Below are positions 7,725 to 60,499 of a stretch of DNA of 64,000 nt, one piece after another. A program made the translations under genes and the position numbers. Source of the DNA: an uncultured candidatus Brocadiaceae bacterium (GTDB lineage Bacteria > Planctomycetota > Brocadiia > SM23-32); contig CAZEAP010000004.1 in assembly GCA_964510315.1 (NCBI GenBank), positions 67,092 to 131,091 of the forward strand, read 5' to 3'. The notes under the pieces were generated by a model. It was given only the letters and a program-made list of their open reading frames with translations. It made no database searches and was not told where the DNA came from. Numbering within the stretch: position 1 is the stretch's first letter; every line of letters begins with the position of its first letter.

Positions 7725-7975
7725 CGGGACCGTGGCGCGGGCATCCCTGCCCGCAGTGGGGGGGGGCATCCTGCCCCCGCTTTGCTCCCTCCCAGCAGGA
7801 AATGGCCGGGCCAGGATGGCCGTACATGTTCAGCGTCGGCGCCGCGGAGCGGCGCGGTCGTGCAGGCCGGGGCACGCCCCGGCGCGTAAACTTCAGCCCC
7901 GGTGCTGGGCCGGATAAGCCGCTAACCAGGGCTAAAGCCCCGGCCTCCATCACAGGGCCCCTGCGGGGCCGATCG
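7725..7975. repeat. Degenerate REP-like palindrome cluster between convergent genes
   Basis: CGTGGCGCGGGCATCCCTGC (7731-7750) is the near reverse complement of 47670-47689; CCGGGGCACGCCCCGG, CCAGGGCTAAAGCCCCGG and GCCCCTGCGGGGC resemble hairpins at 47-49 kb. Confidence 0.55.
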
Positions 7976-8202
7976 GGTTCCGGTAGGCTGGCGGACATTT
8001 GGGAGCCCGTTGGTCGCTGACCTCCTGGCTCGCACAAATAGTCAAACGCAACGAGACGGCACCGCTCGACAGCACGCTAAACACGTACAAGCCCGCCTGT
8101 GGCGCACCAGCTTCGCTCGCCAAGGATGCGCTCGCCCAGAACGACAGCGGGGGCCGATGCTCGGGCGGACCGGGCATGGTTTTTATAGAGCAACCGCGGA
8201 CT

Positions 8203-9084
8203 TCAGCCGCCGGGGGGCCCGGGGCTCAGCCGCGCCAGGGTCTCGAAGTCTTCGACCGTCAGCTCCTCGACCCTCGTCCGCGCCTGTCCCGACCATCCCC
8301 GCAGCATGCGTTGGGCCGTCGGGCGGTCCCAGGCCAGGCTCAGCGCCTTCCTCACCGTCTTGCGGCGGTAGTTGAAGACGGACCGCACCGCGGCGGCGAA
8401 CGCCTCGTAGTCCTCGCCACGCCGTCGCCGGGGCCGCCGGATCAGCTCGACAACGGTCGAGGAGACGCCCGGCTTCGGCCAGAAGGCCTGCGGCGGCAGG
8501 GAGAACAGCTCCCTCACCTCCGCCCAGTAGCGCACGAACACTGTCAGGGGACCGTAGTCCTTGGTTCCCGCCTCGGCCGTCATGCGCTGGCCGACTTCCC
8601 GCTGGAGGGTAAGGACCATCCTTTCCGGCCGCAGTTCCCACTCCAATAGATTGACCACCGCCGGCGAGCTGATGCTGTAGGGCAGGTTGCTCACGACCGC
8701 GGGCGGTGGCTCGGCCTCCCCCGGGGCGGCCGCAAGTGCCTCGGTGACCCGGGGATTGATCCGGTGCTTGCTCTCCAGGAAGTCACACCGCAGGACCGTC
8801 ACGTTGGGATACTCCCCCAGGCGTTCTCGGGCGATCGCGTGGAGCCGTCGGTCGATCTCCACCGTCACCACCCGCCCGGCCCGCCGGGCCAGCCGGGCCG
8901 TGAGCCGGGCGAGCCCGGTGCCGACCTCCAGTACGGCTTCCCGCGGACCGAGGTCGGCGGCCGCGACGATCTTCTCCATGGCCTCGGAGTCCACCAGGAA
9001 GTGCTGCCCCAGGGACTTCTTCGCCCAGACCTCCCGTTCCTTCAGCACCTCCCGCGGATGCCGCTGTTCCCACCCCTCGCGCAT
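8203..9084 (-). CDS. rsmA: 16S rRNA adenine dimethyltransferase (KsgA/RsmA)
   Basis: KKSLGQHFL, LEVGTGLA, VSNLPYSIS, F.P.P.V.S; start taken at ATG 9084. Confidence 0.96.
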   Translation of the reverse strand: MREGWEQRHPREVLKEREVWAKKSLGQHFLVDSEAMEKIVAAADLGPREAVLEVGTGLARLTARLARRAGRVVTVEIDRRLHAIARERLGEYPNVTVLRCDFLESKHRINPRVTEALAAAPGEAEPPPAVVSNLPYSISSPAVVNLLEWELRPERMVLTLQREVGQRMTAEAGTKDYGPLTVFVRYWAEVRELFSLPPQAFWPKPGVSSTVVELIRRPRRRRGEDYEAFAAAVRSVFNYRRKTVRKALSLAWDRPTAQRMLRGWSGQARTRVEELTVEDFETLARLSPGPPGG

Positions 9085-9192
9085 GTGTCCTCCTGGAGCA
9101 TCTCCCGCTTCCTGCCGACTCTCCGCCGGGACCGCCGGCGAATGTACGGCACGCCGTCCGCGTGCGCAACCACCGGCGGGGGAGTCGACATG

Positions 9193-9221
9193 TTGCGGCC
9201 GGCGCGGCCCCGTTTTAGAAT
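9193..9221 (+). promoter_or_regulatory. Possible sigma70 promoter for glycosyltransferase-vWA operon
   Basis: TTGCGG (9193-9198), 17-nt spacer, TAGAAT (9216-9221). Confidence 0.45.
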
Positions 9222-9250
9222 GCCTACCTCGCTTGGCGGAGAGCCTGCTC

Positions 9251-10360
9251 ATGCTGCGCATCCTTGCGCTGGAACCGTATTACGGAGGATCGCACCGCGC
9301 CTTCCTGGACGGCTGGCGCGAGCACAGCCGCCACCGGGTGGAGCTTCTGACCATGCCCGCCCGGAAGTGGAAGTGGCGGATGCGCGGCGCCGCCCTCACC
9401 ATGAGCGAGACGTTGAGGGACCGCGGCCTGGATTGCGACCTGATGCTGGTCAGCGATTTCCTGGACCTGGCCGCCCTCAGGAGCCTGCTGCCGGCCGAAT
9501 GGTCTGCGGTGCCCGCCGTCGCGTACTTCCACGAGAACCAGATAACCTACCCCCTGCCGCCGGAAGACGAGCGGGATTACCAGTTCGGCTTCACCAACCT
9601 GACCACCTGCCTGGCCGCCGAGAAGGTGCTGTTCAACTCCGGATACCACCGGCGGGCCTTCCTGGAGGGGGCCGCGCGGCTGCTGGAGAAGATGCCGGAC
9701 TTCGTGCCCGAGTGGGCGCCGGAGCGGATTCGAGAGCGTTCGGAGGTCGTGCCCGTCGGCGTGGACCTGGCCTCCATCGACGCCCGTCGCCCACAGGCCG
9801 AACCCCGCACGGGACCGCTTACCGTGCTGTGGAACCATCGGTGGGAGTACGACAAGGGGGGCGAGGAGTTTTTTGACGTGATCCTGGAACTCCACCGTGA
9901 GGGCCTGCCTTTTGAGCTGACGGTGCTGGGCCGGAGCTTCCGGTCGGCACCGCCGGTCTTCGAACGGGCCCTGGCCCAACTGGAGGAACGGCTGAGAGTC
10001 GGCGGTTACCTGGAGTCCAGGGCCGATTACTGCCGGGCGCTGCTGGAGAGCGACGTCGTCGTCTCCACCGCCCTGGAGGAGTTCTTCGGCATATCGGTGG
10101 TGGAGGCGGTCTACGCCGGCTGTCTGCCTCTGCTGCCGGAGCGGCTCAGTTACCCGGAGATACTGCCGAGCGAATACCATCGGAGCTGCCTCTACGACGG
10201 CCGCGCCGATTTGAAAGAGCGCCTCAGCTACTGGATCAACCATCCAGAGGAAGCCCGGCGCATGGACCTCCGCTCCCACGTGCGGCGTTTCGGATGGGAC
10301 AGGGTGGCCCCCCGGCTCGACGCCGTGGCGATGGATGTTCGGGAAGGGGGCCTTCGATGA
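9251..10360 (+). CDS. GT-B glycosyltransferase, DUF3524/GTDC1-like (GT4-related)
   Basis: LEPYYGGSH, RKWKWRMRG, YFHENQ, WNHRWEYDK, EFFGISVVEA. Confidence 0.85.
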   Translation: MLRILALEPYYGGSHRAFLDGWREHSRHRVELLTMPARKWKWRMRGAALTMSETLRDRGLDCDLMLVSDFLDLAALRSLLPAEWSAVPAVAYFHENQITYPLPPEDERDYQFGFTNLTTCLAAEKVLFNSGYHRRAFLEGAARLLEKMPDFVPEWAPERIRERSEVVPVGVDLASIDARRPQAEPRTGPLTVLWNHRWEYDKGGEEFFDVILELHREGLPFELTVLGRSFRSAPPVFERALAQLEERLRVGGYLESRADYCRALLESDVVVSTALEEFFGISVVEAVYAGCLPLLPERLSYPEILPSEYHRSCLYDGRADLKERLSYWINHPEEARRMDLRSHVRRFGWDRVAPRLDAVAMDVREGGLR

Positions 10361-12504
10361 TCGAGCTGGCCAGCCCCGGCTTCTTGTGGGCGCTCCCCGC
10401 GGTGCTGCTGCCCATACTGATTCATCTGCTGTTCCGGCGGCGCCACCGGCCCGTCCAGTGGGCGGCCATGCAGCACTTGCTCCGCGCCGAACGGGCGGTC
10501 CGGCGCAGCATCCGGTGGCGCCACATCCTGCTGCTTCTGCTGCGGGCGGGCGCGGTTCTTCTGGCGGTGCTGCTGTTCTGCCGCCCCGGCCTCGCACGGC
10601 CCCTGCCCGGGGAGCCGGAGGGCGGGGAAGTGTTCGTTTTGCTGGACGATTCGGCCAGCATGGGCCAGCGGCTGAAGGGGGGCAGCCCGTTCCAGACGGC
10701 CGGCCGGTTCCTGGAGGAACTGGCCGGGCGCGTGTCCCGACGGGCCGGGCGGCTTACCCTCTTCGTCGCCGGACGTCCGGAGGCCGTCCTCGGCGACGAT
10801 CCTCCTCCGGGGCCTTCCGAGCTTCGGGAGCGGGTGGAGGAGCTGGGCACCTCGGCCGCGGGGCTGCGCCCCGGGGAATCGCTCCCCCGGCTTGGCCGGG
10901 CGGCCGGCGAGCAGGGCGCCGCCGAACCGGAGTTCTACGTGGTGACGGACCTGCGGTCGGAGGATTGGGGCTCCGAGCGGCTGAACCCCCGGGCCGCCGC
11001 CGCGCTTCGTGACCTCCAGAGCTATGGCCCCGTCCGGGTGGTGGACGTGGGGGCGGAGCCCGGACCGAACTTTGCCGTCGAGGAGGTGCTCACGGCCGGG
11101 CGGTTCCTCTACGCCGGCGCGCCGCTGACTTTGAACGCCCGTTTGGTGAACCGGTCGGCAGGCCGGCTCCCACCGGGGCGGCTGGACGTGCGGCTCGCCG
11201 GCCGGCGCCTTTCCCCGGTGAGGCACCCCGGCGTTCCCCCGGGCGAGCGACGCGAGGCGCTGCTGGAGGTCTCCGTGCCCGACGCCGGAACCCACGCCCT
11301 GGAAGTCTCACTGCGCGGGGAGGACTCGCTCGCAGCGGACGACCGCCGCCTGTTCTCCTTCGAAGCCGAGCAGGAAGTGCCCGTGCTCATCCTGGAGGGC
11401 CGACCGGGCGCCGGTGCCTACCTGCGGGCGGCACTCCGGCCGGGCGGCGACGGACCGGGACTCCGCCCGGAGGTCCGCACCACGGCGCAGGGCGTGCCGG
11501 ATTCGCTGGAGGACTACGCGGCGGTATTCCTCTGCGACGTTCCCAGCCCGACTCTTTGGGCCGACCGGCTGGACGCCTATGTCCGTAACGGCGGCCGGCT
11601 GGTGGCGTTCCTGGGCCGGGGGGTGCGCCAGCGGGCATGGGAGGCAACGCTCCTGAACGAGGAGGACGGCCTGTTGCCGGCCCGGATCACCGGGCGGGTT
11701 CGGCGCCCGCCTGAGCGCCCCGCGCGCCTGGGGCGGCTGGATTTCTCTCACCCCCTGCTGGCCCCGTTCTCCGGCTGGGAGGCGCTCTTCAAGGCGGCCG
11801 AATTCCGGGAGTTCTGGCGGATCGAACCCCTGCGCGACGCCCGTGTGCTGGGTAGCTGCGAAGCCGACCCCCCTGCCCCCGCGATGCTGGCGAGAGTGAC
11901 GGGAGAGGGAAGGATGGTGCTGTTCGCCGCCCCCGCGGACGATCTGTGGAACGACTGGCCACGCTCCGAGACGGCGCGGGTCAGCTACCTGGCACTCATG
12001 CTGTGGCTGGTGGAGCAGGGCGAGGCGGGGGCCGATGCGCTCAACCTGCAGGGCGGGGAGGGGCTTCGTCATACGGTGGAGGCCGGCTACCGTTCGGAGG
12101 CGCGCCTCCGGCTGCCGGGCGGCGAAGAGGAAGCAACTCTCAGGGGGCGGCCCCTGGAGGACGGGCGCCTGGTCTTTGAGACGGGACCGATACGCAGGGC
12201 CGGCGTCGGCAGGCTGACCCTGCTTACCTCGGAAGAACAAACTCGCGTGGTTTTTTTCGTCGTGAATCTGCCTCGCGGGGAGGGCCGACTCGCCCGCACG
12301 GACGCCGAGCTGCTGGAGCGGGCGGACGTGGAGGGTCGCCTCCGGGTGGTCCCCTACGGGGACGACCGCGCGGCGCGGGCCCCCGCACCGGGGCGGAGGG
12401 ACCTCTGGCCGGCGATCGCCGCGTTCCTCGCCGGGGTGTTGTTCGTGGAGAGTCTCCTGGCCTCCCGGTTCGGCCGGCCGACCGAAGAAGGAGGCGCAGC
12501 TTGA
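10357..12504 (+). CDS. BatA-like N-terminal anchor plus vWA domain membrane protein
   Basis: LPILIHLL.RRR...V.W.AM..L start, MIDAS-like DDSASM, C-terminal TM; ATGA overlap. Confidence 0.85.
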   Translation: MIELASPGFLWALPAVLLPILIHLLFRRRHRPVQWAAMQHLLRAERAVRRSIRWRHILLLLLRAGAVLLAVLLFCRPGLARPLPGEPEGGEVFVLLDDSASMGQRLKGGSPFQTAGRFLEELAGRVSRRAGRLTLFVAGRPEAVLGDDPPPGPSELRERVEELGTSAAGLRPGESLPRLGRAAGEQGAAEPEFYVVTDLRSEDWGSERLNPRAAAALRDLQSYGPVRVVDVGAEPGPNFAVEEVLTAGRFLYAGAPLTLNARLVNRSAGRLPPGRLDVRLAGRRLSPVRHPGVPPGERREALLEVSVPDAGTHALEVSLRGEDSLAADDRRLFSFEAEQEVPVLILEGRPGAGAYLRAALRPGGDGPGLRPEVRTTAQGVPDSLEDYAAVFLCDVPSPTLWADRLDAYVRNGGRLVAFLGRGVRQRAWEATLLNEEDGLLPARITGRVRRPPERPARLGRLDFSHPLLAPFSGWEALFKAAEFREFWRIEPLRDARVLGSCEADPPAPAMLARVTGEGRMVLFAAPADDLWNDWPRSETARVSYLALMLWLVEQGEAGADALNLQGGEGLRHTVEAGYRSEARLRLPGGEEEATLRGRPLEDGRLVFETGPIRRAGVGRLTLLTSEEQTRVVFFVVNLPRGEGRLARTDAELLERADVEGRLRVVPYGDDRAARAPAPGRRDLWPAIAAFLAGVLFVESLLASRFGRPTEEGGAA

Positions 12505-14837
12505 ACGCGTGGACGACCGCCCTCCGAAGCCTCAGCGGGATCACGGGAGCCACCGAGCGAGTGCGCCTTCGCTTCACCTGGGAGGGCATGCCGGAGGGAC
12601 TCCCCGCCCTCGGCGCCATCCTGTTGGCAATCGGCGTGCTTGCGGCGCTTTACCACTTCTACCGGCGGGAGCGGGGAGGGGCCTTGCGGTGGGTCCCCTT
12701 CGCGCTGCGCGTTCTGGCCTTCGTTCTGCTGGGAGCCCTCTTGCTGCGTCCGTCGATATCCAGGGACCTGGAACGAACGCTTCCCGGCCGGGTGGTGGTC
12801 CTTGCGGACCGGTCGGCCAGCATGTCGGTGCGGCGGGAGCCCATGGGCGGGAACACGGCCCGGGCCTGGGCCGCGGCACTGTCCCTCCCGCCCGAGGAGG
12901 TCCCCGAGGAGCTGAGCCGCCACGAGATCGTGCGCAGAATCCTTGCGCCCGGGGGCGGGGGTCTGCTGGAACGGCTGAGCGAGCGCCACGAGGTGGGCCT
13001 GTTTACCTTTGCCGAGGACGCCCGCCGCGCGCTCCGGGTGGGCCGCGGGTCGCCCGGACCCGAGCCGCCCCGGTGGGCGGCCACCGGGCGAGCAACGGAC
13101 CTGGCCGGTGCGCTTCGGCGGGCCCTGGAGGCTGAAGGGCGTCTGGCGGCCGCGGTGGCTCTCACCGACGGCCGCGACACAACGGGAGGCGATCCGACGG
13201 CGGTCGCCCGGGAGGCCGCAAAGCGCGGCGTGCGGCTGCATTTCGTCGGCGTCGGCAGCCCGGAGGTCCGCCCCAACCTGGCCGTGCGGGCCCTGGCCGG
13301 CGGCGACTACGCCGTCAAGGGCCAACCCCTCCGGCTGCGGGCGCTGGTCAGCTCCCGCGGCTACCCCGAGCGCGAAGTCGTGCTGACCCTGAGCGCGACC
13401 GACCCCGACACGAGCCGCACGCGGGAGGTGGCCCGCCGGAAACTGAGGCTGGGCGAGGGTGAGTCACGGCAGGTGGACCTGGAGCCGGTTCCCCGCCGTG
13501 CGGGGCGCACCATCTACTCCGCGCGCGTCGCTCCGCTGCCCGGGGAGTGGCGGGAGGAGGACAACGAGGCTGTCCGCGAAGTGACTGTAAAGGAACAGAA
13601 GATTCGCGTGCTGGTGGTCGCCGGTGCGCCCTCGCGCGACTACCGTTTCCTCAAGGCCCTTTTCCGGAGACATCCCGACTTCGAACGCCGGCTGGAACTG
13701 GGCCCGGAGGGCACGGCGGACCGCCGGGACGGCACGGGGGACTGGGACGTGGTCCTGCTGCTGGACCCGGCGCCCGGGCAACTGACGCCGGAGCGAACCC
13801 GGGAGCTGGCCGCTCTGGTGGATCAAGAGGGCGGGGGGCTCGCCTTCGTGGCGGGTCCTTCCTACAGCCCTGAACGTCTCCTGGACCCAGGCATGGAGCC
13901 GCTGCTGGAGATGTTGCCCGTCGTGCCGGACCGCGACGGCCTCCGACGCCTGGTCGGGTGGACGGGCTTTGCCACCGAAGAGCACCCTATCGAGGCGACG
14001 GCGGAGCATCCGATTCTGGACGTCCTGCCGGGGGAAGATATCCGTGCTCTCTGGGAGCGGATGCCGCCACTCTACTGGGCGCTGCCCACGGCGGGGAAGA
14101 AGCGTGGGGCGACCGTGCTGCTCAGGGTGGCCGACGGGGAAGGCGGCACCATGCCGCTGGCCGCGGTGCAACCCTACGGGGCGGGACGGGTCTTTTTCTG
14201 CGGCTCCCCCGGCACCTGGCGCTGGCGCCGAGCGGGCATCCCCCTCTACGAGCGGTTCTGGCTGGGGGCCGTGCGCTACTGCGCCGGCGGCAGGGCCGCC
14301 CGGCAGAAAGGGGTTTCCCTGCTGCTGGAGCAGTCGGAGTTCGCCCCCGGGGAGGCGGTCAGGATTCGGCTCCGCATTCAGGAGGGTGCGCCCCTTCCTC
14401 CCGGTGGGGAGGCCGCCCGCGTCAAGATCACCGGACCCGAGGCGACCGAGGCCACGCTCAGGCTCCGGCCGGCGGAGGTGCCCGGCGTTTACGAAGGGGT
14501 GTTCTACCCCGAGCGCTTCGGCCGGTTTTCACTCGTCTGGGAAGAACCGGAGGGGGCGGGGGCGACGGAGCGCTTCACGGTGCGGCGGCCGGAGGCGGAG
14601 TTCGAGGAGGTCCGACCGGCGGTCGACCTGATGAAGCGACTGGCCGAACTGAGCGGGGGACGCTACTTCGCTCCCGGGGAACTGGACGAACTTCCGGCGG
14701 CGATACCCGACCGCACCCGCCGGACGGTCCAGCCCGGTCCCCCCCGGCCGGCGTGGGACAAGGTCGGCGTGCTGGCGGCGCTGCTGGGCTGCCTGGCCGC
14801 CGAGTGGCTGCTGCGCAAGCGACTGGGCATGCTCTGA
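12501..14837 (+). CDS. vWA domain membrane protein with glutamine amidotransferase-like domain
   Basis: N-terminal TMs, DRSASM, LTDGRD, TWRWR, MKRLAELSGGRYF, C-terminal TM LAAEWLLRKR. Confidence 0.82.
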   Translation: MNAWTTALRSLSGITGATERVRLRFTWEGMPEGLPALGAILLAIGVLAALYHFYRRERGGALRWVPFALRVLAFVLLGALLLRPSISRDLERTLPGRVVVLADRSASMSVRREPMGGNTARAWAAALSLPPEEVPEELSRHEIVRRILAPGGGGLLERLSERHEVGLFTFAEDARRALRVGRGSPGPEPPRWAATGRATDLAGALRRALEAEGRLAAAVALTDGRDTTGGDPTAVAREAAKRGVRLHFVGVGSPEVRPNLAVRALAGGDYAVKGQPLRLRALVSSRGYPEREVVLTLSATDPDTSRTREVARRKLRLGEGESRQVDLEPVPRRAGRTIYSARVAPLPGEWREEDNEAVREVTVKEQKIRVLVVAGAPSRDYRFLKALFRRHPDFERRLELGPEGTADRRDGTGDWDVVLLLDPAPGQLTPERTRELAALVDQEGGGLAFVAGPSYSPERLLDPGMEPLLEMLPVVPDRDGLRRLVGWTGFATEEHPIEATAEHPILDVLPGEDIRALWERMPPLYWALPTAGKKRGATVLLRVADGEGGTMPLAAVQPYGAGRVFFCGSPGTWRWRRAGIPLYERFWLGAVRYCAGGRAARQKGVSLLLEQSEFAPGEAVRIRLRIQEGAPLPPGGEAARVKITGPEATEATLRLRPAEVPGVYEGVFYPERFGRFSLVWEEPEGAGATERFTVRRPEAEFEEVRPAVDLMKRLAELSGGRYFAPGELDELPAAIPDRTRRTVQPGPPRPAWDKVGVLAALLGCLAAEWLLRKRLGML

Positions 14838-14851
14838 AGAAAGCCCTCTTC

Positions 14852-15607
14852 TCACGCTTCGCGGGGGTCTTCGGGGTAGGTGACCTCGAGGAGGGTGAGT
14901 CCTTTGGCCGGTGCGGTGGGTCCGGCGGCCGGGCGGCTGCGCGCTTCCAGAACGCCGGCGAACTCCTCGACGGAAAGCTTCCCCAGCCCCGCCCGCCGGA
15001 GCGTCCCGACGATGATGCGGACCATGTTGTAGAGGAATCCCTCGCCTTCGACCAGGTAGTGCACTTCGTCGCCGTCCTCGCGGATCTCGCTGCGGAGGAC
15101 GCGGCGCACCGCACCCGAAGCCTCCGAGTGTTCGCTGGCGAAGCTGGTGAAGTCGTGCTCTCCCTCCAGCAGGGCCGCACATTCGGCCATACGGCCGAGG
15201 TCCAGCGGACGCCATTCCCTCAGCACGTAGCGGTCGCGAAGGGGCCGGGGTGTGGAGGAGCGGAGGATGCGATAGCGATAGAGCTTCGAGCGCGCCGAGC
15301 GCTGGGCGTCGAAATCACCGGGCGCTTCGCAGCAGTGCAGCACGGCAACGTCGTCGGGGAGCCAGAAGTTCAGCGCAGGCGCGAAGCGCTCGGTCGCCAG
15401 TTCCGAGGAGGTGCCGAAGTGGGCCGTCTGCCCCTCGGCGTGCACGCCGGAGTCGGTTCGTCCGGCTCCGGTGACGCGGATGTTCTCCTGCGTGGTCTTG
15501 AGCAGGGCATCCTCCAGCACTCCCTGCACGGTGCGGCCCTCGGCCTGGAGCTGCCAGCCCAGGAAGTCCGTGCCGTCGTATTCGATGGTGATCATGAGCC
15601 TGCGCAC
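14852..15607 (-). CDS. truA: tRNA pseudouridine(38-40) synthase
   Basis: IEYDGTDFLGWQ, GAGRTDSGVHA, FLYNMVRIIVG, TAPAKGL; GTG start at 15607 inferred. Confidence 0.96.
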   Translation of the reverse strand: MRRLMITIEYDGTDFLGWQLQAEGRTVQGVLEDALLKTTQENIRVTGAGRTDSGVHAEGQTAHFGTSSELATERFAPALNFWLPDDVAVLHCCEAPGDFDAQRSARSKLYRYRILRSSTPRPLRDRYVLREWRPLDLGRMAECAALLEGEHDFTSFASEHSEASGAVRRVLRSEIREDGDEVHYLVEGEGFLYNMVRIIVGTLRRAGLGKLSVEEFAGVLEARSRPAAGPTAPAKGLTLLEVTYPEDPREA

Positions 15608-15716
15608 GGCGTTGGCACCTGTGGCGTATGGAGACGCAAGGCGTGGGTGTTGGGGGCCGCGGGTGAATCTATCGGAGGCGGCCGGCGGCGTCAAGACGGC
15701 ACGCCCGGAGTTTTGT

Positions 15717-15745
15717 TTGCAGGGGATGGGGGGCGATTCTATAAT
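15717..15745 (+). promoter_or_regulatory. Sigma70 promoter for proS-like/DUF4416/ndk operon
   Basis: TTGCAG (15717-15722), 17-nt spacer, TATAAT (15740-15745). Confidence 0.65.
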
Positions 15746-15812
15746 GCGCCCTCCCGGCGGTCGCGGAGCCGGCCACGGGGGTTTCCGGCTTCCCTCAGCC
15801 CCGAAAGACCGT

Positions 15813-16808
15813 ATGCGCTGGTCCGAGACCTTCATTCCCACGCTCCGCCATGCACCGGCCGACGCCGTCGCCGTCAGCCACAAGCTCATGGTGCGTGCCG
15901 GTTTGGTCCGGCAGATGGCCGGCGGCTCTTACGCCTACCTGCCGATGGGGCTGCGCGCGCTGAGGAAGGTCAGCGGCATCGTGCGGGAGGAGATGAACCG
16001 CCTGGGCGCGCTGGAAGTGCGGATGCCGGCCCTGTGGCCGGAGGAGATGATGCGCAAGACGGGCCGCCTGGAGAGCTTTGCCGATGACCTCCTCCGGCTT
16101 GAGGACCGACGGGGGCGGCCACACCTGCTGGCGCCCACCCACGAGGAGGCGGCCGTCGCGCTGCTCCGGGACGACGTTCAGAGCTACAAGAGCCTGCCCC
16201 TCACGGTGTATCAGATTCAGACGAAGTTCCGGGACGAGCCGCGGCCGCGCTTCGGCCTGGTGCGCACCCGCGAGTTCCTCATGAAGGACGCCTACAGCTT
16301 CTGCGCCGATGGGGACGGGCTGGACGCCGGGTTCATGGGTTCCGACGGCCGGGGCCGGCCCTTTCTTATGGGCTGTTACGGGCTGGGAATGGATCGCATC
16401 CTGGCGGCCGTCGTCGAGACCGCGGCCGACGAGCAGGGCATCGTCTGGCCGCCCGCGGTGGCGCCCTGCGAGGTGATTGTCATAGCGCTGGGACCCGCGG
16501 AACAGGCCGTGCGGCGCGCCGCCGAGGAAGCATGTCGCACCATGGAAGAGGCCGCCCTGGACGTGCTGCTGGACGATCGGGACGCAAGTCCGGGGGTGAA
16601 GTTCAACGACGCCGACCTGCTCGGCTTCCCGCTTCGGGTCGTGGTCGGCCGGCGGTTCATGCAGCAGGGAACGCTCGAACTGCAGGTGCGCCGGGACGGA
16701 ACCCGGGAGGACGTGGCGCCGGAGCGACTGTCGGCGGCGGTGCGCGCCCGGCTGGAAAGCCTGTCGGCGACGCGCTCCGACGTGAGGACGAGAGCAGGGA
16801 CAAACTGA
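15813..16808 (+). CDS. proS: Prolyl-tRNA synthetase-like protein with large in-frame internal deletion
   Basis: Motif 1, PTHEE, motif 2 (FRDEPRPRFGLVRTREFLMKD), motif 3 (MGCYGLGMDR) and anticodon domain present; only 331 aa, no editing domain, no SHEF or GIEVGHIF segments. Confidence 0.85.
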   Translation: MRWSETFIPTLRHAPADAVAVSHKLMVRAGLVRQMAGGSYAYLPMGLRALRKVSGIVREEMNRLGALEVRMPALWPEEMMRKTGRLESFADDLLRLEDRRGRPHLLAPTHEEAAVALLRDDVQSYKSLPLTVYQIQTKFRDEPRPRFGLVRTREFLMKDAYSFCADGDGLDAGFMGSDGRGRPFLMGCYGLGMDRILAAVVETAADEQGIVWPPAVAPCEVIVIALGPAEQAVRRAAEEACRTMEEAALDVLLDDRDASPGVKFNDADLLGFPLRVVVGRRFMQQGTLELQVRRDGTREDVAPERLSAAVRARLESLSATRSDVRTRAGTN

Positions 16809-16829
16809 AACTGACGGGGAGCAAGGGCG

Positions 16830-17375
16830 ATGGGTGAAACGCAAAGGCCGAGGCCGGTCAACCTTGTCTGCGCCGTGCTGGCGGGCAAAAAGCAGTGGCT
16901 GCGGAAGGCGAGGGACCGGCTGGAGAGAAGCTTCGGCCCGGTGGACCTGGAGAGCCCGACCTGGCCCTTCGAGCACACCGATTACTACACCGACGAGATG
17001 GGCGAAGAGCTGCTGCGCCGGATATTCAGCTTCAAGGAACTCATCGCGCCGGACAACCTGGTGGCCGCAAAGCACACCACCAACCGGCTGGAGAAGGAGA
17101 TCGCCGAAGAGGTGGCCGGGGGGCCTCCGCGGCCGGTGAACCTGGACGCCGGCTACGTCAGCCTCTCCAAGCTGGTGCTGGCCACCACGAAGGACTACAC
17201 TCACCGTGTCTACCTGGGCGGCGGCATATACGCCGAGTGCACCCTCCGCTGGCGAGGCGGGGCCTTCCAGCCCTGGGAATGGACTTACCCGGATTACCGC
17301 ACCGAGGAGTATCGGGAGTTTTTCGCCAGGGTGCGGGACTGCTGCCGGGAGAAACTGGGCGAACGAAGGAGGTAA
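16830..17375 (+). CDS. DUF4416 family protein
   Basis: TDYY..EMG, R.VNLDAGY, LVLATTK...HRVYL..GIYAE, WTYPDY. Confidence 0.85.
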   Translation: MGETQRPRPVNLVCAVLAGKKQWLRKARDRLERSFGPVDLESPTWPFEHTDYYTDEMGEELLRRIFSFKELIAPDNLVAAKHTTNRLEKEIAEEVAGGPPRPVNLDAGYVSLSKLVLATTKDYTHRVYLGGGIYAECTLRWRGGAFQPWEWTYPDYRTEEYREFFARVRDCCREKLGERRR

Positions 17376-17384
17376 CAGGCAAGA

Positions 17385-17855
17385 ATGGAGCGGACGCTGG
17401 TGTTTTTGAAACCGGATGCCGTCAGGCGCCGCCTGGTGGGCGAGATCATCGCCCGCTTCGAGCGGAAGGGATTCAGTATGCTCGGGCTGAAAATGGTGCA
17501 GCTCAGCGAACGGTTCGTCCGCAACCACTACGGGCAGCACGAGGGGGAGCACTTCTATGAGCCCCTGGTGCGTTACGTCACCAGCGGGCCCGTGGTGGCG
17601 CTCGTTCTGGAGGGAAAGAACGCGGTCACGGTGGTGCGCAGAATGCTGGGCGAAACCTTCGGTTCGGGTTCGGCACCGGGAACCATCCGCGGGGACATGG
17701 CCCTGAGCGACCGCTTCAACCTGGTGCATGCCAGCGACAGCTCCGAGGCGGCCCGCCGGGAGATAGAGCTTTTCTTCGAAGAGGCCGAGCTGTTCAGCTA
17801 CCCTGAGGAAGCCACCCGATGGATATACGATCAGAGCGGCCCCGAGCCGATTTGA
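17385..17855 (+). CDS. ndk: Nucleoside diphosphate kinase
   Basis: ERTLVFLKPDAV, GTIRGD, N.VHASDS catalytic His. Confidence 0.97.
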   Translation: MERTLVFLKPDAVRRRLVGEIIARFERKGFSMLGLKMVQLSERFVRNHYGQHEGEHFYEPLVRYVTSGPVVALVLEGKNAVTVVRRMLGETFGSGSAPGTIRGDMALSDRFNLVHASDSSEAARREIELFFEEAELFSYPEEATRWIYDQSGPEPI

Positions 17856-17877
17856 GCAAAAAGGCAGGAGGAAAACG

Positions 17878-18726
17878 ATGAACGGGAGCAAGAGAAACTG
17901 GAGAGACGCCGGTCTGCCGACCTTGATCGGGATGCTGTTGGTGTGCTTCGGGTTGGTCGCTGCCGCCGGCTGCGCCGAGAAGCCCACCATTGCCCCCGGC
18001 CCCCGCGCACTTACCGAGCCGCCGGACCTGGAGGCGGTGAAGCAGCAGCTCATGCTGGAGAACACCAGGTGGAAGACCCTCAGCGCCAGGTGCATGGTGA
18101 ACATTCGGAGCGACTACATCCGCGCGCCGCGCTCCCAGGCGGCGCTCGGCACGGGCCGGTTGGAGATAGGCAAGCCGGGCAAGATCCGCCTCAGGGTGCC
18201 TGAAAAAGGTCCGGCACAGCTAAAGCTGGTGGGCGACGGGCAGGACTACAGCGTGGAGATGCCGATCTTCGGCCTGCGCTATAGCGGAAGCTACGGGGGA
18301 GCCCTGCCGCGGCAGGGCAACCGGGTGCTGCTGATGCCCGACGACCTGGTGAAGGCGTTCGACTGGAGCAAGCTGTTCACCGATAAAGTCCAGGTGCCCC
18401 GTCAGCAGGGCTTCAGCTACGTCATTGATTCCCTGAAGCCGGTTACCGAACCGGAGCCGGCGCTGCGGCTGGTCAACAGCCTGACCCTTAGCTGGGACAG
18501 CCAGACGCCCGTGGTGTTGACACGCTACGAGCCGGATGGCTCGCTGCGGTCGGAGATGCGCTACTTCCGGTGGGACACCATCCAGACCGGGGAGAACAAG
18601 AGCACAAGGATCCCCTCCCGCCTCTGGGTCGGCTACATGCCGGGGCGGACCGCGACGCTGATAGGACTCCGCGACATCGTGCTGAACGAGCGGTTGGAGG
18701 GCGCGCCGTTCGGGCCCGCTCGTTGA
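17878..18726 (+). CDS. Probable lipoprotein, possibly LolA-like beta fold
   Basis: Signal peptide ending AAGC (lipobox), beta-rich body; fold assignment is inference. Confidence 0.7.
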   Translation: MNGSKRNWRDAGLPTLIGMLLVCFGLVAAAGCAEKPTIAPGPRALTEPPDLEAVKQQLMLENTRWKTLSARCMVNIRSDYIRAPRSQAALGTGRLEIGKPGKIRLRVPEKGPAQLKLVGDGQDYSVEMPIFGLRYSGSYGGALPRQGNRVLLMPDDLVKAFDWSKLFTDKVQVPRQQGFSYVIDSLKPVTEPEPALRLVNSLTLSWDSQTPVVLTRYEPDGSLRSEMRYFRWDTIQTGENKSTRIPSRLWVGYMPGRTATLIGLRDIVLNERLEGAPFGPAR

Positions 18727-18733
18727 GGGGCCG

Positions 18734-19024
18734 CTACATCTGGGGCAGCCCCGGGAGGGTGATCCAGCCCAGCCCGTGGGCCAGCAGGATCACTATGACG
18801 GCCAGCACGATCACCATCAGCAGTTTCCGGAAGAGCCCGCTCCCGCCGGCTGTGCCCGCCTTCGGGGCGGTCTTCTTGTAGTCCCGGTATTCGGCGGCGC
18901 ACTCCCTGCTGCAAAAGGCGCCGTGCTCGGTCTTGAAGGCGCATTCGTCGCACACAGGCTTGTGGCACTGGATGCAGCGGAACTGCGCGGGCCTGTCATG
19001 GCAGACTACACACTTTGTCTCCAT
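18734..19024 (-). CDS. Small B-box-like zinc finger protein with C-terminal TM helix
   Basis: CVVCHDRPA..RC..C.KPVC.EC......FC...C; GGAGG RBS before ATG 19024. Confidence 0.75.
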   Translation of the reverse strand: METKCVVCHDRPAQFRCIQCHKPVCDECAFKTEHGAFCSRECAAEYRDYKKTAPKAGTAGGSGLFRKLLMVIVLAVIVILLAHGLGWITLPGLPQM

Positions 19025-19056
19025 CCGGCGCACCTCCCGATAGGGGAACATACCTC

Positions 19057-20427
19057 TCAGAGGATGTAACGGGTCAGGTCCTCGTCCTCCACCAGATCGG
19101 CAAGTTTGGAATCCACGTAGTCCCTGTCGACCACGACGTGTTCGGGGGCGATGTCGGGGGCGTCGAAGCTGATGGTCTCCAGCAGCTTCTCCATCACCGT
19201 CTGGAGTCGCCGGGCCCCTATGCTCTGGGCGGTGCTGTTGATCTGCTCGGCGTAGTCGGCGACCCGCTCCAGGGCCTCCGGGGTGAACTCCAGCTCTATG
19301 CCCTCGGTCTGCAGCAGGGCGCGGTACTGCTTGGTCAGGGCGTTGCGGGGCTCCTTGAGGATGCGCACGAAGTCGCTCCGGGTCAGCTCATCCAGTTCCA
19401 CCCGGATGGGGAAGCGGCCCTGAAGCTCCGGGATGAGATCGCTCGGCTTACTCACGTTGAAGGCTCCGGCGGCCACGAACAGGATGTGGTCGGTGCGGAG
19501 CATACCGTGGCGGGTGGGGACGTTGCAGCCCTCCACGATGGGCAGCAGGTCCCTTTGCACGCCTTCCCGGCTGACGTCCGGCCCCTGGGCTTCTCCGTGG
19601 GAGCCGGCGATCTTGTCCAGCTCGTCCACGAAGATTATGCCCTGGTTTTCGGCTTTCCACAGGGCCTTCCGCGTCACCGAGCGGCGGTCCACCAGCTTCT
19701 CGCTCTCCTGGTGTATGAGCACTTCGTATGCCTCCTCGACGCTCATTCGACGGGTGTCGGTGCGGGCGGGCAGCATCTCTTCCAGGAAGCTCTGCATGTC
19801 CACCCCCATCTCGTCCCCGCCGAAGGCCACCCCCTGCATGACCATCGGCTTTTCGCTGACCTGTATCTCCACTTCGCGGTCGTCCAGCTTCCCCTGGTGC
19901 AGCATCTCGCGCAGCCGCCGGCGGGCCCTTCGGCGCTGCTCGGCCCTTTCGGGCTCCTGAGTTCCCGCGCCGGGTTCATAGAGGAGGTCCAGCAGGCGTT
20001 CCTCGGCGTGTTCTTCGGCCTGGGGCCGGACCTCTTTCATCATGGCGGAACGCACCATGTTGACCGAGAGGTCGACCAGTTCCCTGACCATGCTCTCGAC
20101 GTCTCTGCCGTGGTATCCGACCTCGGTGTAGTGGGAGGCCTCAACCTTGACGAAGGGGGCGTTGGCGAGGCCGGCCAGTCGGCGGGCTATCTCGGTTTTT
20201 CCCACCCCGGTGGGGCCGATCATGATGATGTTCTTCGGCAGGACCTCGCGGCGCATTTCCTCGGCGAGCTGCTGGCGGCGCCAGCGGTTCCGCAGGGCAA
20301 TGGCCACCGAGCGCTTCGCTTCGCCCTGTCCGATGATGTACTCGTCGAGCTGTTGGACGATGGCTCGCGGCGTCAGGCCCTCTACGGCAAGGTCTCGACC
20401 CGTATCTGGCGATTTGTGTAGACGCAT
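19057..20427 (-). CDS. hslU: ATP-dependent protease ATPase subunit HslU (start uncertain)
   Basis: LTPRAIV..LD.YIIGQ, GPTGVGKTE, VQRDLLPIVEG, QGRFPIRVEL, IGARRL. Confidence 0.97.
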   Translation of the reverse strand: MRLHKSPDTGRDLAVEGLTPRAIVQQLDEYIIGQGEAKRSVAIALRNRWRRQQLAEEMRREVLPKNIIMIGPTGVGKTEIARRLAGLANAPFVKVEASHYTEVGYHGRDVESMVRELVDLSVNMVRSAMMKEVRPQAEEHAEERLLDLLYEPGAGTQEPERAEQRRRARRRLREMLHQGKLDDREVEIQVSEKPMVMQGVAFGGDEMGVDMQSFLEEMLPARTDTRRMSVEEAYEVLIHQESEKLVDRRSVTRKALWKAENQGIIFVDELDKIAGSHGEAQGPDVSREGVQRDLLPIVEGCNVPTRHGMLRTDHILFVAAGAFNVSKPSDLIPELQGRFPIRVELDELTRSDFVRILKEPRNALTKQYRALLQTEGIELEFTPEALERVADYAEQINSTAQSIGARRLQTVMEKLLETISFDAPDIAPEHVVVDRDYVDSKLADLVEDEDLTRYIL

Positions 20428-34191: not shown

Positions 34192-34290
34192 GAAGTACAC
34201 GGCCCGAGGCTTTGTAATTGGAGACCATAGCGGCCTGTTGAGAAGCCGGACCCGATCCCCGTTCCTGAGCAGGCTCCTGGAGGAGTGCGT

Positions 34291-36456
34291 ATGTCGCGTC
34301 CGGCGTCCCTGGCGGTACCCGGTCTTGCGGATGTTCTGGAGCTGCGTCTGCCGGCCGAGCTGAAGTCCCTCCGCGACACGGCCCGCAGACGCCAGCAGCA
34401 AGAGCACGGCCGGTGCGTCGAGCTGACACTCATCGACGCCCGTAGCTGGGCGGAACACACCGACGACGAGCCGTGGCTGATGTGGCGCGCCCGAAGGACC
34501 GCCGCGCGCCTGGAGGGAATGCCCATTCACCTGGAGCCGGGCGAGACGATCGTGGGCAGGCCCCTGCTGCGAACCCCCGCCGCGGCGGAGGAAGGTCCGC
34601 TGGATGAGGCCCGAAAGGCACTCGAATCCATGCCGCCGTTCCCCGGCGGCGATCCAGGTCATTTCCACCCCGACTACGAGAAGCTGTTCCATCTCGGTAT
34701 CGGCGGCATACTCGACGAAATCCAGGAACGCGCCGCCGCCGAAGGGGAACAGCGGGTTTTCTACGATGCCTGTCGCGTCGCGATGAACGGCATGGCGACC
34801 TACGTCCTCCGTGTCGGAGAGGCATGCTCCGGCATGGCCGAGTCGGACCGCGAGCACGAAGCGACGTGGCGAGACCTCGCCGAGATGTGCCGCCGCCTGG
34901 CCTCCGAGCCGCCCGCCACGTTCCACGAGGGCCTTCAGCTCATGTTCCTGGCTCAGATAGCTCTGTGGTTCGGGGACGGGCACGCACTGACCAGTCCGGG
35001 ACGCGTGGACCGGACGCTGCGGGGTTTCTACGAGGCCGATTTGGCCGCCGGCAGACTGACGCATCGCGAGGCGCTGGAGCTGCTGTGCTGTCACTTCATC
35101 CAGATGAACCGCATTCTCTGGCCCGGCTCCGCCATAGCGGTGCTGCTCGGAGGGCGGGACGCCGCCGGGCGGGACGTAACCAACGAGCTGACCTACCTGT
35201 GCCTGGCCGCTCGCGCCGCTACCGGGCTCGTCTATCCGACGGTCGCAGTTGCCTGGCACGAGGGCACGCCGGATGAGCTGATGGACTTCGCGGTCCGGAT
35301 GCTCGGAACCGGAATCGGCGATCCGGCCCTCTTCAACGACGAAGTCATCGCGGAGGGCCTGCGCGACCACGGCGTCGCGGAGGGTGACCGCCACAACTAC
35401 GTCAACTCCACCTGCGTCGAGATCAAGATCGCCGGCGCCTCCAACATCTGGGTGACCCAGCCTTACTTCAACTGCCCCGCGGCGCTGCTGGCGGTCATCG
35501 AGCGGGCTGCCGAGGAGCCGGAGAAGGGGCCGGCGACGTTCGATGAGCTTTCGGCGCAGGTCAAGGACGAACTGGCGAGGAGAATCGCCGAGGCGGCCGA
35601 ACGCCTGGACGACCTCTGGCGCCGCAGGGCCAGGCACGGCTGCTTCCCGCTGGCAAGTTGCCTCATACGAGACTGCCTGCGGGAGGTCAGGGACTACGAC
35701 CGGGGCGGGGCGCGCTACAACTGGGTCGAGAACTCGTTCGTCGGGCTCGCCAACCTTGCGGACGGTCTGCTGGCGGTCAAAAGGCTTGTCTACGAGGACG
35801 GGGAACTGACCCCGGCGCGCCTTCACGAGATACTTGAGGCGGACTTCGAGGGCCACGAAGCCCTGCGACAGAGGATCCTTCACGAACTTCCCAAATACGG
35901 CAATGACGTTGACGAGGTCGACCGGCTGGCCGTCGAGTTCGCCGAGTTCCTTATCGAGCGCACCGAGAGACACACGGTCGGCCCGCATCGCTACGTGCCG
36001 GGATTCTTCTGCTGGGTTCAGCACGAACGGCTCGGCTCGGGGACCGGCGCCACCCCGGACGGGCGCAGAGCGGGGCTGCCGCTGGCCAACGGGGCCGGGG
36101 CGGCCCAGGGCAGGGAGATGAACGGGCCCACGGCGGCGGTCCTCTCAGCGACGAAGTGGAGCCACCAAGCCGTCCTCGGCGGGCTGGTGCACAACGCCCG
36201 GTTCGCACAGTCGATGTTCCGCACCGAGTCGGACAGACGGGCGGTGCGCGACGTGCTGGAGACCTACCTGCGTCGGGGAGGCTTCCAGGTGCAGGTGAAC
36301 GTCGTCGGAACCGAGGACCTTCGTGATGCCCAGCAGCATCCGGAGCGCCACCCCCACCTGCTGGTCCGGGTTGCGGGCTACTCCGACTACTTCACGCATC
36401 TGAATCGCAACATGCAGGACGAGATCATCCGCCGCACCGAGTTCGAAGCAATCTGA
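34291..36456 (+). CDS. Glycyl radical enzyme (PFL-like superfamily, unassigned subfamily)
   Basis: C-terminal LVRVAGYSDYF glycyl motif, active-site STCVE, TPDGRRAG.PL. Confidence 0.92.
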   Translation: MSRPASLAVPGLADVLELRLPAELKSLRDTARRRQQQEHGRCVELTLIDARSWAEHTDDEPWLMWRARRTAARLEGMPIHLEPGETIVGRPLLRTPAAAEEGPLDEARKALESMPPFPGGDPGHFHPDYEKLFHLGIGGILDEIQERAAAEGEQRVFYDACRVAMNGMATYVLRVGEACSGMAESDREHEATWRDLAEMCRRLASEPPATFHEGLQLMFLAQIALWFGDGHALTSPGRVDRTLRGFYEADLAAGRLTHREALELLCCHFIQMNRILWPGSAIAVLLGGRDAAGRDVTNELTYLCLAARAATGLVYPTVAVAWHEGTPDELMDFAVRMLGTGIGDPALFNDEVIAEGLRDHGVAEGDRHNYVNSTCVEIKIAGASNIWVTQPYFNCPAALLAVIERAAEEPEKGPATFDELSAQVKDELARRIAEAAERLDDLWRRRARHGCFPLASCLIRDCLREVRDYDRGGARYNWVENSFVGLANLADGLLAVKRLVYEDGELTPARLHEILEADFEGHEALRQRILHELPKYGNDVDEVDRLAVEFAEFLIERTERHTVGPHRYVPGFFCWVQHERLGSGTGATPDGRRAGLPLANGAGAAQGREMNGPTAAVLSATKWSHQAVLGGLVHNARFAQSMFRTESDRRAVRDVLETYLRRGGFQVQVNVVGTEDLRDAQQHPERHPHLLVRVAGYSDYFTHLNRNMQDEIIRRTEFEAI

Positions 36457-39907: not shown

Positions 39908-39975
39908 ACGAACAGTGTACCGACGGCCTTACTGCACAGATGGGGTCCCAGGTTGGTATATGGAGAAGGGCTCAC

Positions 39976-42810: not shown

Positions 42811-43114
42811 GGAACTGCGAACCGAGCTGAAGCGCCGCCTGGAGGATGCCTTCGGGGACCGACTGCAAGGCGTGGTGCTGTACGGTTCCGAGGCGCGGGG
42901 AGAGCCCCGGCAGGACAGCGACATCGACGTGATGGTGTTGCTGGAGGGGCCTATCAACCTGTGGGAAGACCTCAAGACGGGCATCGAGGCCACCTATGAC
43001 CTGACGTTGGAGTTGGGGCGGCCTGTGCATCCGGACCCGGTGGACGCGGCGGAATACGAAAAAGGGGAGTTTGCGCTTTATCGCAACGTGAAACGGGAAG
43101 GAATCGTGCTGTGA
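42800..43114 (+). CDS. Minimal nucleotidyltransferase (MNT) antitoxin
   Basis: LYGSEARGE...DSDIDVMV; overlaps mod stop and HEPN start. Confidence 0.92.
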   Translation: MEREELRTELKRRLEDAFGDRLQGVVLYGSEARGEPRQDSDIDVMVLLEGPINLWEDLKTGIEATYDLTLELGRPVHPDPVDAAEYEKGEFALYRNVKREGIVL

Positions 43115-43509
43115 GCCATGAGTCACAGGATCTGTGGGCGCGTGCGGTGGAGGCATTAGGCGTTGCGCAGAGGGAGGCAGCGCTGAGCCCGGACGCCTCG
43201 GCGTCGCGTGCTTACTACGCGGCCTTCCATGCCGTATCCGCCCTCTTTGCCACGAGAGGCGAGAGCTTCAGGCGACACTCGGCAGTGGAAGCGGCCGTGC
43301 ATCGCGACCTGGTGCGCACGGGGGATTTGAGCAAGGAGTTGGGCGCGGCCTACAGCGCGTTGCTGAGGTTGCGCGAGGTGGGAGATTACGGCGGGGCACG
43401 CCACGTGAGGGCCGACCAAGCACGCGAGGCGGTGGGCGATGCCCGGAAGATTCTTGCGGCGGTCAGTGAGCTGAAACCGGATGAGTTCCACATGCCGGAA
43501 AAGGAGTGA
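43111..43509 (+). CDS. HEPN domain protein (toxin partner of MNT)
   Basis: SRAYYAAFHA, RRHSAV, LREVGDY. Confidence 0.9.
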   Translation: MSHESQDLWARAVEALGVAQREAALSPDASASRAYYAAFHAVSALFATRGESFRRHSAVEAAVHRDLVRTGDLSKELGAAYSALLRLREVGDYGGARHVRADQAREAVGDARKILAAVSELKPDEFHMPEKE

Positions 43510-43513
43510 AGGC

Positions 43514-46500: not shown

Positions 46501-46666
46501 GTTCGACGAGTTGGAGGGCGTGAAGCGCGAGGCGGCCAAGCGATGGGTAGAAGCCGTCAATGCGGATGGTGCCTTTGGTCACTGGGACTACGCGACCGCT
46601 CACAGCCCTGGTGTCGTGATAAGTCTTCTTGACGAAGCAGTCAGAGCGGGCCTCGACGCGGGCTGA
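43514..46666 (+). CDS. res: Type III R-M restriction subunit (SF2 ATPase plus PD-(D/E)xK nuclease)
   Basis: MATGAGKT, NDEAHH, LSATP, VGMLTEGWD, QVVGRGLR, YVPDF...LETKG. Confidence 0.92.
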   Translation: MADFEVPEPILNTPYEEPQQYWFIREGESPEQREGRRPSVVYPPSDTPVKWSIEPEILQRSEDFAPGYEMVLVNLVRERRKQWRADGCPGVTRVSKELMEWWHRAGRKTPLWFAQLEAAETVIFLTEARQDYLQGIDVPLDEPNPSQKEEGIKAFLRYALKMATGAGKTTVMGMLAAWSILNKVNNRSDARFSDVVLIVCPNITIKNRLQELDPEQGDASLYRTRDLVPPHLMPQLSQGKVIVTNWHLFQLQDPSAGDPAKVKKIGVKVEKLDTVYIRDRTDTYRGYRYLTLEDYEQQVATGMLTVREEYRDSSGNLEKADVVTTKYVESDTAWDRRVLGQEIGGKQNILVMNDEAHHAYRIRRGEEEEETEEETFGEESEAEEFFTEATVWVEGLDRVHKMRGINFCVDLSATPYYLGRVGQETNKPFPWVVSDFGLTDAIESGLVKIPQLALQDPSGEERAAYFNLWKWILDQLTSREKGGTKGSPKPEAVLKYAHHPIAMLGGQWEETRQVWKRNEDDDRPPVFIIVCKNTKIAEVIYQWLANGEAPEGIPTSGIDALRNTDGRENTVRIDSKVVHETDSDHAKSDLDAWMRLTLDTVGKEQWPTDSQRRPIYPEGFEELANKLGKPLHPPGRDVRCIVSVGMLTEGWDCNTVTHIVGLRPFMSQLLCEQVVGRGLRRTSYEVAENGKLTEEVAQILGVPFEVVPYKAAPEGQPAQVKERKHVHALPEKARYEITFPRVDGYTQAIRNRVTVDWDALPRLRLDPAQIPPEVRMKATVPSNEGRPSLFGPGGEVQIDLNPYREGRRMQELAFEMAAAMTKELANNPRCNVPTHVLFPQTLGIVQRYLAEKVDPVPPAERIDVALSPYYGWAVERLRDAIRADTGAGEPPEVPRYEQHRGPGSTDEVDFWTSREVWTPQRSHVNYVVADTRRWEQSAAYHIDKHDAVDAYVKNAGLGFAIPYVHNGEPHDYVPDFIIRLKTDGDEERYLILETKGFDELEGVKREAAKRWVEAVNADGAFGHWDYATAHSPGVVISLLDEAVRAGLDAG

Positions 46667-58723: not shown

Positions 58724-58738
58724 GTCGCTGCTCCGACT

Positions 58739-59170
58739 CTACTCGCCGAGGACGTCGACCTTCGCCATGACGCTGAAGCCGGCTTCGTCGAGGGACTCGA
58801 CGGCGGCGTCGTTCTCCTCGAAGCGGAAGATGAGGGCCGCCCGGCCGGTGCGAACCGAGGAGAAGGCGTACATGTATTCGACGTTGATCTCGTCCTCCTC
58901 CAGTGCCTGGAGGATGTTGTCGAGCCCGCCGGGTTTGTCCTCCACCTCGACGGCGAGGACGTCGTTGGTTATGACGGTGAAACCGGCGGCCTTCAGGGCG
59001 TCGCGGCCGGCTTCGGGATCGTTGACGATCAGCCGGAGGATGCCGAAGTCGGCGGTGTCGGCCAGGCTGAGGGCCAGGATGTTGATGTCCATTTCGGCCA
59101 GCGCGCTGGTGGCGGCGGCCAGGCGACCGGCCCGGTTCTCCATAAAGATGCTGATCTGCTGGACGAACAT
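58739..59170 (-). CDS. Tandem ACT-domain protein
   Basis: QISIFMEN..GRL, D.PGGL..IL, INVEYMYAF; typical paaK neighbour. Confidence 0.92.
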   Translation of the reverse strand: MFVQQISIFMENRAGRLAAATSALAEMDINILALSLADTADFGILRLIVNDPEAGRDALKAAGFTVITNDVLAVEVEDKPGGLDNILQALEEDEINVEYMYAFSSVRTGRAALIFRFEENDAAVESLDEAGFSVMAKVDVLGE

Positions 59171-59181
59171 TTTCGGACCTC

Positions 59182-60483: not shown

Positions 60484-60499
60484 GTCCTCCTCCTGCAGC

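Follow-up and report, generated by a model that had tools for sequence, protein, structure and literature searches.

A proS gene missing a large internal segment in frame: probably a one-off deletion allele

What becomes of a prolyl-tRNA synthetase (ProRS) gene that has lost the segment between two of its signature motifs and still reads through in frame? An open reading frame of this kind lies at 15813-16808 on the plus strand of the stretch of DNA analysed here (64 kb, hereafter the window). The initial annotation had offered two answers: a real deletion that left a tRNA-binding paralogue, possibly devoid of aminoacylation, or an assembly collapse. Judging from the sequence, its surroundings and its relatives, we suggest a third. 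The gene is best explained as a one-off deletion allele of proS and not as a new protein family.

Architecture and catalytic capacity of the shortened protein

The internally deleted proS gene has a natural start and a natural stop (TGA), and its frame is unbroken. It encodes 331 aa containing ...KDAYSFCADGDGLDAGFMGSDGRGRPFLMGCYG..., in which ProRS motif 2 abuts motif 3 nearly directly, an arrangement first described in the initial annotation and borne out by translation, profiles and alignments. All three class II signature motifs are kept. Motif 2 (FRDEPRPRFGLVRTREFLMKDAYSF, aa 139-163; 16227-16301, plus strand) and motif 3 (GCYGLGMDRILAAVVE, aa 187-202; 16371-16418, plus strand), as placed by alignments, lie in invariant columns, and R140, E142, R144, R151 and F155 of motif 2 occupy columns that are invariant or nearly so. 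The anticodon-binding domain (aa 220-312; 16470-16748, plus strand) is complete, covering positions 1-93 of 94 of HGTP_anticodon (PF03129; E = 7.9e-17). Of the class II core as modelled by Pfam (tRNA-synt_2b, PF00587), the 331-aa protein covers profile positions 3-75 of 179 only. Furthermore, Pfam gave no match in this protein to the INS editing domain (tRNA_edit, PF04073), which is present in all of the nearest relatives.

Several comparisons delimit the missing segment. With the NCBIfam ProRS models, profile positions 1-174 are aligned before the match jumps; with an HMM built from 120 relatives, the window protein corresponds to positions 1-174 and 422-569 of 572, with 175-421 absent; and with Pseudomonas aeruginosa ProRS (PDB 5UCM), it matches residues 9-184 and 435-567. 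Among 118 relatives, the distance between the leucines that flank the gap is mostly 251-253 aa, which would put the deletion at about 252 codons (~756 bp) and the parent protein at about 583 aa. The earlier figure of ~240 aa was therefore right in describing a large gap and somewhat low in sizing it. Lost with the gap are the INS editing domain, a Cys-rich insert and the core strands GGxxSHEF and IEVGHIFKLGTKYS. Alignment with full-length and INS-less ProRS indicates that the loss includes ~55 residues right after motif 2 (Y..M..AY..I...GL....VEA..G..GG..SHEF) as well as the ~20 residues preceding motif 3 (IEVGHIFKLGTKYS). A complete class II core needs both GGxxSHEF and IEVGHIFKLGTKYS between motifs 2 and 3, and the 331-aa protein has neither; the initial remark that the SHEF and GIEVGHIF strands were missing is upheld by the alignment and by the HMM gap. 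Profile scores differ among models. The protein scores above the cut-off of TIGR00409 (365.3 vs 306.7) and below those of NF006625 (417.7 vs 558) and of NF008979, the model for INS-less ProRS (362.5 vs 550).

ProRS that are naturally short provide a useful standard for judging this loss. INS-less ProRS (NF008979; ~440 aa, for example that of Rhodopseudomonas palustris, PDB 2I4L) and mini-ProRS resemble the window protein in the absence of the editing domain, but they keep the ~55 residues after motif 2 and the ~20 before motif 3, whereas the window protein is without both. Specifically, the alignment shows GGxxSHEF and IEVGHIF in two INS-less ProRS of 433 and 438 aa (P0078 and P0118), and both core segments are also kept in natural mini-ProRS of 362-388 aa (P0306, P0322, P0340, P0346 and P0389), which came to light when 1.84 billion representatives were searched exhaustively. 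The earlier statement that editing-less forms retain the core strands is thus true even of the smallest among them, and all natural ProRS that we examined, down to 362 aa, carry the strands absent from the window protein. The five mini-ProRS are without INS and the CxxC...CxxC insert while keeping GGxxSHEF and IEVGHIFKLGTxYS, and their size appears to mark the lower limit of the bacterial-type family.

The floor of the active site in class II synthetases is an antiparallel sheet, which is completed by the strands lying between motifs 2 and 3. Because these strands are gone, a loss of aminoacylation is to be expected, and we infer that the window protein could neither make prolyl-adenylate nor charge tRNAPro. 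An AlphaFold2 model of the 331-aa protein has a pLDDT of 91.3 and a pTM of 0.88. In a Foldseek comparison with ProRS structures, its query-normalised TM-score was 0.89, with 2I4L as the best match, and its target-normalised TM-score was 0.68 for 2I4L and 0.52 for 2J3L; what the model depicts is a ProRS with a hole. Given such a confident model, the remnant may still fold. The high pLDDT is driven by the alignment of homologues, however, so that it is no evidence of stability or function, and we rejected it as support for either.

The locus, its relatives and the age of the deletion

If the short gene were a paralogue, it would be expected at a locus apart from the canonical gene and conserved in several genomes. 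In the window, the gene order is truA(-), proS, DUF4416, ndk, orf282, a ~95-aa ORF (-) and hslU(-). The same order is found in three relatives (L002, L003 and L004), where proS encodes 576, 576 and 568 aa, respectively. The neighbours of proS are equal in length between the window and these relatives, and proS alone differs. This synteny with full-length proS makes the window gene a positional orthologue, and the canonical proS locus is occupied by the short gene itself.

The ancestral locus is marked by its divergent neighbour truA, a pseudouridine synthase gene at 14852-15595 (-). On the other side, and all on the plus strand, are the DUF4416 gene (16830-17375), which is second in the operon and holds the same place in L002, L003 and L004, ndk (nucleoside diphosphate kinase; 17385-17855), and orf282 (17878-18726), a conserved 282-aa ORF with no Pfam match that is the last of the co-oriented cluster. 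Gaps of 21 nt (proS to DUF4416), 9 nt (DUF4416 to ndk) and 22 nt (ndk to orf282) separate the four genes, in agreement with the earlier view that proS heads an operon with ndk. The promoter reported in the initial annotation was also recovered. A sigma-70-like TTTGCA-18 nt-TATAAT at 15716-15745 (+), upstream of proS, matches at 10 of 12 positions; two promoter-like sites were found against 0.3 expected by chance, and proS of L002 is preceded by a similar TATAAT context.

Strict conservation with L002, L003 and L004 covers window positions 14852-20427, that is, truA(-), proS-DUF4416-ndk-orf282, the small ORF (-), hslU(-) and hslV(-). In this clade, the uncharacterised DUF4416 protein and the 282-aa protein always accompany proS and ndk. 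The DUF4416 gene of L003 (ENA ERZ25039549, contig_10295, 7756-8308) is broken into ORFs of 69 and 104 aa, probably reflecting a frameshift error or a pseudogene of that assembly.

Other parts of the window hold features of a different kind. At 39940-46666, a 956-aa DNA methylase (N6_N4_Mtase) precedes a ResIII-type helicase/nuclease of 1061 aa, forming a type III restriction-modification-like pair; this stretch, whose GC content is 0.61-0.65 (~0.67 elsewhere), is possibly an acquired island. At 57416-62853 (-), two tandem paralogous ligases of 435 and 433 aa (AMP-binding and AMP-binding_C_2; phenylacetate-CoA-ligase-like) adjoin a 626-aa indolepyruvate/pyruvate:ferredoxin oxidoreductase-like gene, in what looks like a cluster for the fermentation of aryl acids or aromatic amino acids. 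Finally, a glycyl-radical enzyme of 723 aa (PFL-like and Gly_radical) is encoded at 34285-36456 (+). Its PFL-like match starts at profile position 156 of 647, and the N-terminus is short or divergent.

The shortened form of ProRS is a singleton. In a database of 5.8 billion protein clusters, it is the sole member of its cluster (P0001), and the next 119 matches are 433-580 aa long. The match ranked second is a full-length protein whose N-terminal half shows 73% identity; over the retained residues, identity to the seven nearest relatives (P0002-P0008) is 62-68%. Similarly, when 1.84 billion proteins were searched through their 50%-identity representatives, the deleted architecture was not shared by any of the 150 closest. 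The initial annotation had proposed looking for the same junction in related genomes, and it was not found among the 119 cluster matches and the 150 representatives. Conservation in several genomes is thus absent from a form that is a single cluster member and unique among those representatives.

With a nearest relative that is ~68% identical, synonymous sites would saturate, making dN/dS unsuited; tests of conserved sites and of relative rates were used instead. Across 103 positions with at least 90% conservation, the window protein deviates at 4. The relatives deviate at a mean of 2.4 (sd 2.0), and 32 of 119 have at least 4 deviations. Mean identity to an outgroup is 0.521 for the window protein vs 0.524-0.533 for P0002-P0006, P0009, P0010 and P0012. 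In addition, motifs 2 and 3 keep their ATP-binding arginines. Since there is neither relaxed constraint nor an acceleration in rate, the deletion is either very recent or absent from the real genome. As a rough estimate, a neutral-decay model would place it in the final few percent of the terminal branch. An evolutionary history this close to zero argues against an established, neofunctionalised tRNA-binding paralogue. With the ancestral proS locus occupied, the form a singleton and no sign of independent evolution, the term paralogue, as used in the initial annotation, does not fit this gene.

The junction and its competing explanations

The deletion junction, at which ~252 codons are gone, lies at 16320-16330 (+) and coincides with a presumed microhomology, CTGGACGCCGG (L170-D171-A172-G), of which CTGGACGCC at 16320-16328 encodes L170-D171-A172. 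The junction is seamless and has no filler sequence. The sequence that spans it reads GACGGGCTGGACGCCGGGTTC, and the protein reads ...FRDEPRPRFGLVRTREFLMKDAYSFCADGDG-LDA-GFMGSDGRGRPFLMGCYGLGMDR... across it. The initial annotation had suggested that L-D-A might flank the lost segment on both sides, and our comparisons make this plausible. At the right-hand site, the closest relative L002 reads GCG CTG GAC GCC GGA TAC, in which CTGGACGCCGG is identical to the window junction. At the left-hand site, relatives have ...ADEAG-LD-xAY; G-L-D is common there, with L-D in 26 of 118 and L-D-A in 6 of 118. As no undeleted allele of this lineage was found, the left-hand repeat is a reconstruction from relatives. 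Two of the relatives, P0007 and P0008, have L-D at both sites. The two HMM matches to the window protein also overlap by 4-5 residues, at L-D-A-G-F. A scan of 15700-16900 for repeats found none related to the junction. A GC-rich palindrome, GGCCGGGGCCGGCC, followed by CTTTCTT, lies at 16347-16360 within the coding sequence, ~20 nt downstream of the junction, and was flagged as terminator-like. It is absent at the equivalent place in L002, and a role for it in replication slippage would be speculation.

An intact frame might suggest that the gene is functional. In L003, however, whose proS is full length, 34 of 41 pairs of direct repeats of at least 9 nt within that gene are in frame (~83%), as are 19 of the 21 pairs at spacings of 300-1200 nt. 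This excess of in-frame repeats arises from codon bias in GC-rich genes. The unbroken frame pointed out in the initial annotation therefore carries little weight.

We propose a history that begins with an ancestral, single-locus, bacterial-type proS. Its host is an uncultured bacterium of high GC content, and the closest relatives of this host carry Planctomycetota or Brocadiia annotations. One deletion of ~756 bp would have occurred between short direct repeats, CTGGAC[GCC] (Leu-Asp-Ala), through replication slippage or microhomology-mediated end joining. Because both repeats stand in the same codon phase, the frame would have been kept automatically. The product would keep motifs 1, 2 and 3 along with the anticodon-binding domain, and would lose INS and the GGxxSHEF/IEVGHIFKLGTKYS strands. 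Such an in-frame event would let transcription and translation proceed as far as the natural stop, 21 nt ahead of DUF4416, and the remnant would be a young pseudogene with an open frame, from which RNA and protein are still made. It probably persists, and is still expressed, because it stands at the head of the proS-DUF4416-ndk operon.

This history presupposes that the deletion exists outside the assembly. A Logan contig of SRR7048227 (12,389 nt) is 100% identical to window positions 7844-20232, including the junction. The two assemblies probably derive from one read set, so their agreement represents independent software and not independent data. Nevertheless, the Logan assembly was made with k=31, and a repeat of 9-11 nt cannot collapse a de Bruijn graph of that k, which means that junction-spanning molecules exist in the reads. 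Going by how assemblers behave, an alternative path of 756 bp at comparable depth would break the contig, and the contig is unbroken at the junction. Furthermore, pgk, cinA, clpX, tig, tpiA, pheA and yicC in the window all have full Pfam profile coverage; with other housekeeping genes intact, there is no general assembly problem in the window. The assembly collapse considered in the initial annotation is therefore unlikely, given the shortness of the microhomology and the identical junction in the Logan assembly. When the middle 251 aa of the closest relative's protein were searched against the 5.8 billion clusters, no undeleted allele or stray fragment of this lineage was found. The best fragments of the middle segment (P0122 and P0126) were set aside as coming from other organisms, being 56% and 69% identical, respectively, where they overlap the window protein.

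A subtler artefact would be that the dominant genome carries a full-length proS (~583 aa), and that the junction belongs to a haplotype in the minority or to library chimeras, formed for example by template switching at the microhomology in the amplification step, and was taken by both assemblers. ProRS is essential, the deleted form is a singleton, and the rest of the gene is without decay, as if the deletion lacked a history; the same reads may also underlie both assemblies. Yet a Logan contig that passes through the junction needs repeated junction-spanning 31-mers, and a 756-bp path of equal depth should have broken a contig that is continuous over 12.4 kb. In addition, contig numbering that exceeds 57,000 points to an ordinary metagenome and not an amplified single cell, and the search for the missing segment brought up no piece of it that belongs to this lineage. 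We regard this origin as unlikely, if well short of negligible. The explanation that we prefer, with a confidence that barely exceeds an even chance, is that a real and recent microhomology deletion of the ancestral proS left a dead remnant, with a second ProRS encoded elsewhere. Since ProRS is essential, a deleted genotype that is viable and dominant must have another proS elsewhere in its genome, and a second proS is what we predict. An HMM search of all six-frame ORFs found neither a second ProRS nor a relocated middle segment in the 64-kb window. In a scan of GTDB genomes with the window protein, the best among the matches listed were 49-61% identical, and the genome to which the window belongs was not among them.

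Alternatively, the 331-aa protein could be a functional, non-catalytic derivative of ProRS that binds tRNAPro, or that heterodimerises with another ProRS and modulates it. Its frame, promoter, start and stop are intact, its anticodon-binding domain is complete, and its confident AlphaFold2 model comes close to ProRS by query-normalised TM-score. However, the form is conserved in no other genome searched, it sits at the ancestral locus and is not a duplicate, and its intact frame is expected by chance. The ATP-binding residues are kept at a normal rate even though such a derivative would not need them, which fits recency and not a new function. Moreover, a 2022 review of duplicated synthetases gives a single ProRS paralogue, the full-length ProRSx, and this has a full catalytic core (PMC9437257). 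A functional derivative of this kind is very improbable in our view. We have strong doubts, too, about the narrower proposal that the remnant, which comprises the motif-1 dimer interface, motifs 2 and 3 and the anticodon-binding domain, yields a stable product and serves as a non-catalytic binder of tRNAPro or as a modulator of a second ProRS; if true, a synthetase would have been converted in situ, at its ancestral locus, into a tRNA-binding paralogue. Finally, the short form could be the only ProRS and still charge tRNAPro, alone or as a split enzyme with the missing segment encoded elsewhere. The presence of motifs 1, 2 and 3 and of the anticodon-binding domain would be in keeping with activity, as would the score above the TIGR00409 cut-off. 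But the match to the Pfam class II core stops at position 75 of 179, the scores fall below the cut-offs of both NF006625 and NF008979, every natural ProRS examined keeps the lost strands, and the missing segment is encoded nowhere in the window. An active short form is hardly credible against this evidence.

Known systems and wider meaning

The window gene is most readily compared with bacterial-type ProRS that carry INS (TIGR00409 / NF006625; PDB 5UCM, 2J3L and 5ZNJ). It resembles them in motifs 1-3, anticodon-binding domain, locus and operon, and differs in being without ~252 residues, roughly 185-434 of 5UCM (INS, Cys-rich insert, GGxxSHEF and IEVGHIFKLGTKYS). ProRSx, a duplicated ProRS of Streptomyces that charges tRNAProA (PMC9437257), offers a likeness as a ProRS-derived extra gene product. 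However, ProRSx is a genuine duplicate whose catalytic core is complete, and it is found throughout a group of species and works with a dedicated tRNA (PMC9437257), whereas the window gene is neither a duplicate nor conserved and is without the core. Scans of the window for tRNA genes and Rfam families found no dedicated tRNA gene and no leader RNA. More generally, evolution is known to have produced class IIa synthetase scaffolds that do not aminoacylate, as exemplified by HisZ and the POLG2 accessory subunit. These are conserved families with loci and signatures of their own, whereas the window gene is a singleton allele at the parental locus.

Our findings have implications for how such genes are annotated. 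The remnant passes the TIGR00409 equivalog cut-off, and annotation pipelines and marker-gene completeness estimators would count a working ProRS where half of the core is gone. On the strength of its sequence, the window gene should not be filed as a functional ProRS despite the one cut-off that it passes. Nor is an intact frame evidence of function in cases of this kind, since microhomology deletions in GC-rich, codon-biased genes are mostly in frame. For the biology of the lineage, the consequences depend on the deletion being real and dominant. In that case, a second ProRS would be predicted in the lineage, for example one that is archaeal or eukaryote-like, and the locus would capture the displacement of an essential synthetase gene at its first step.
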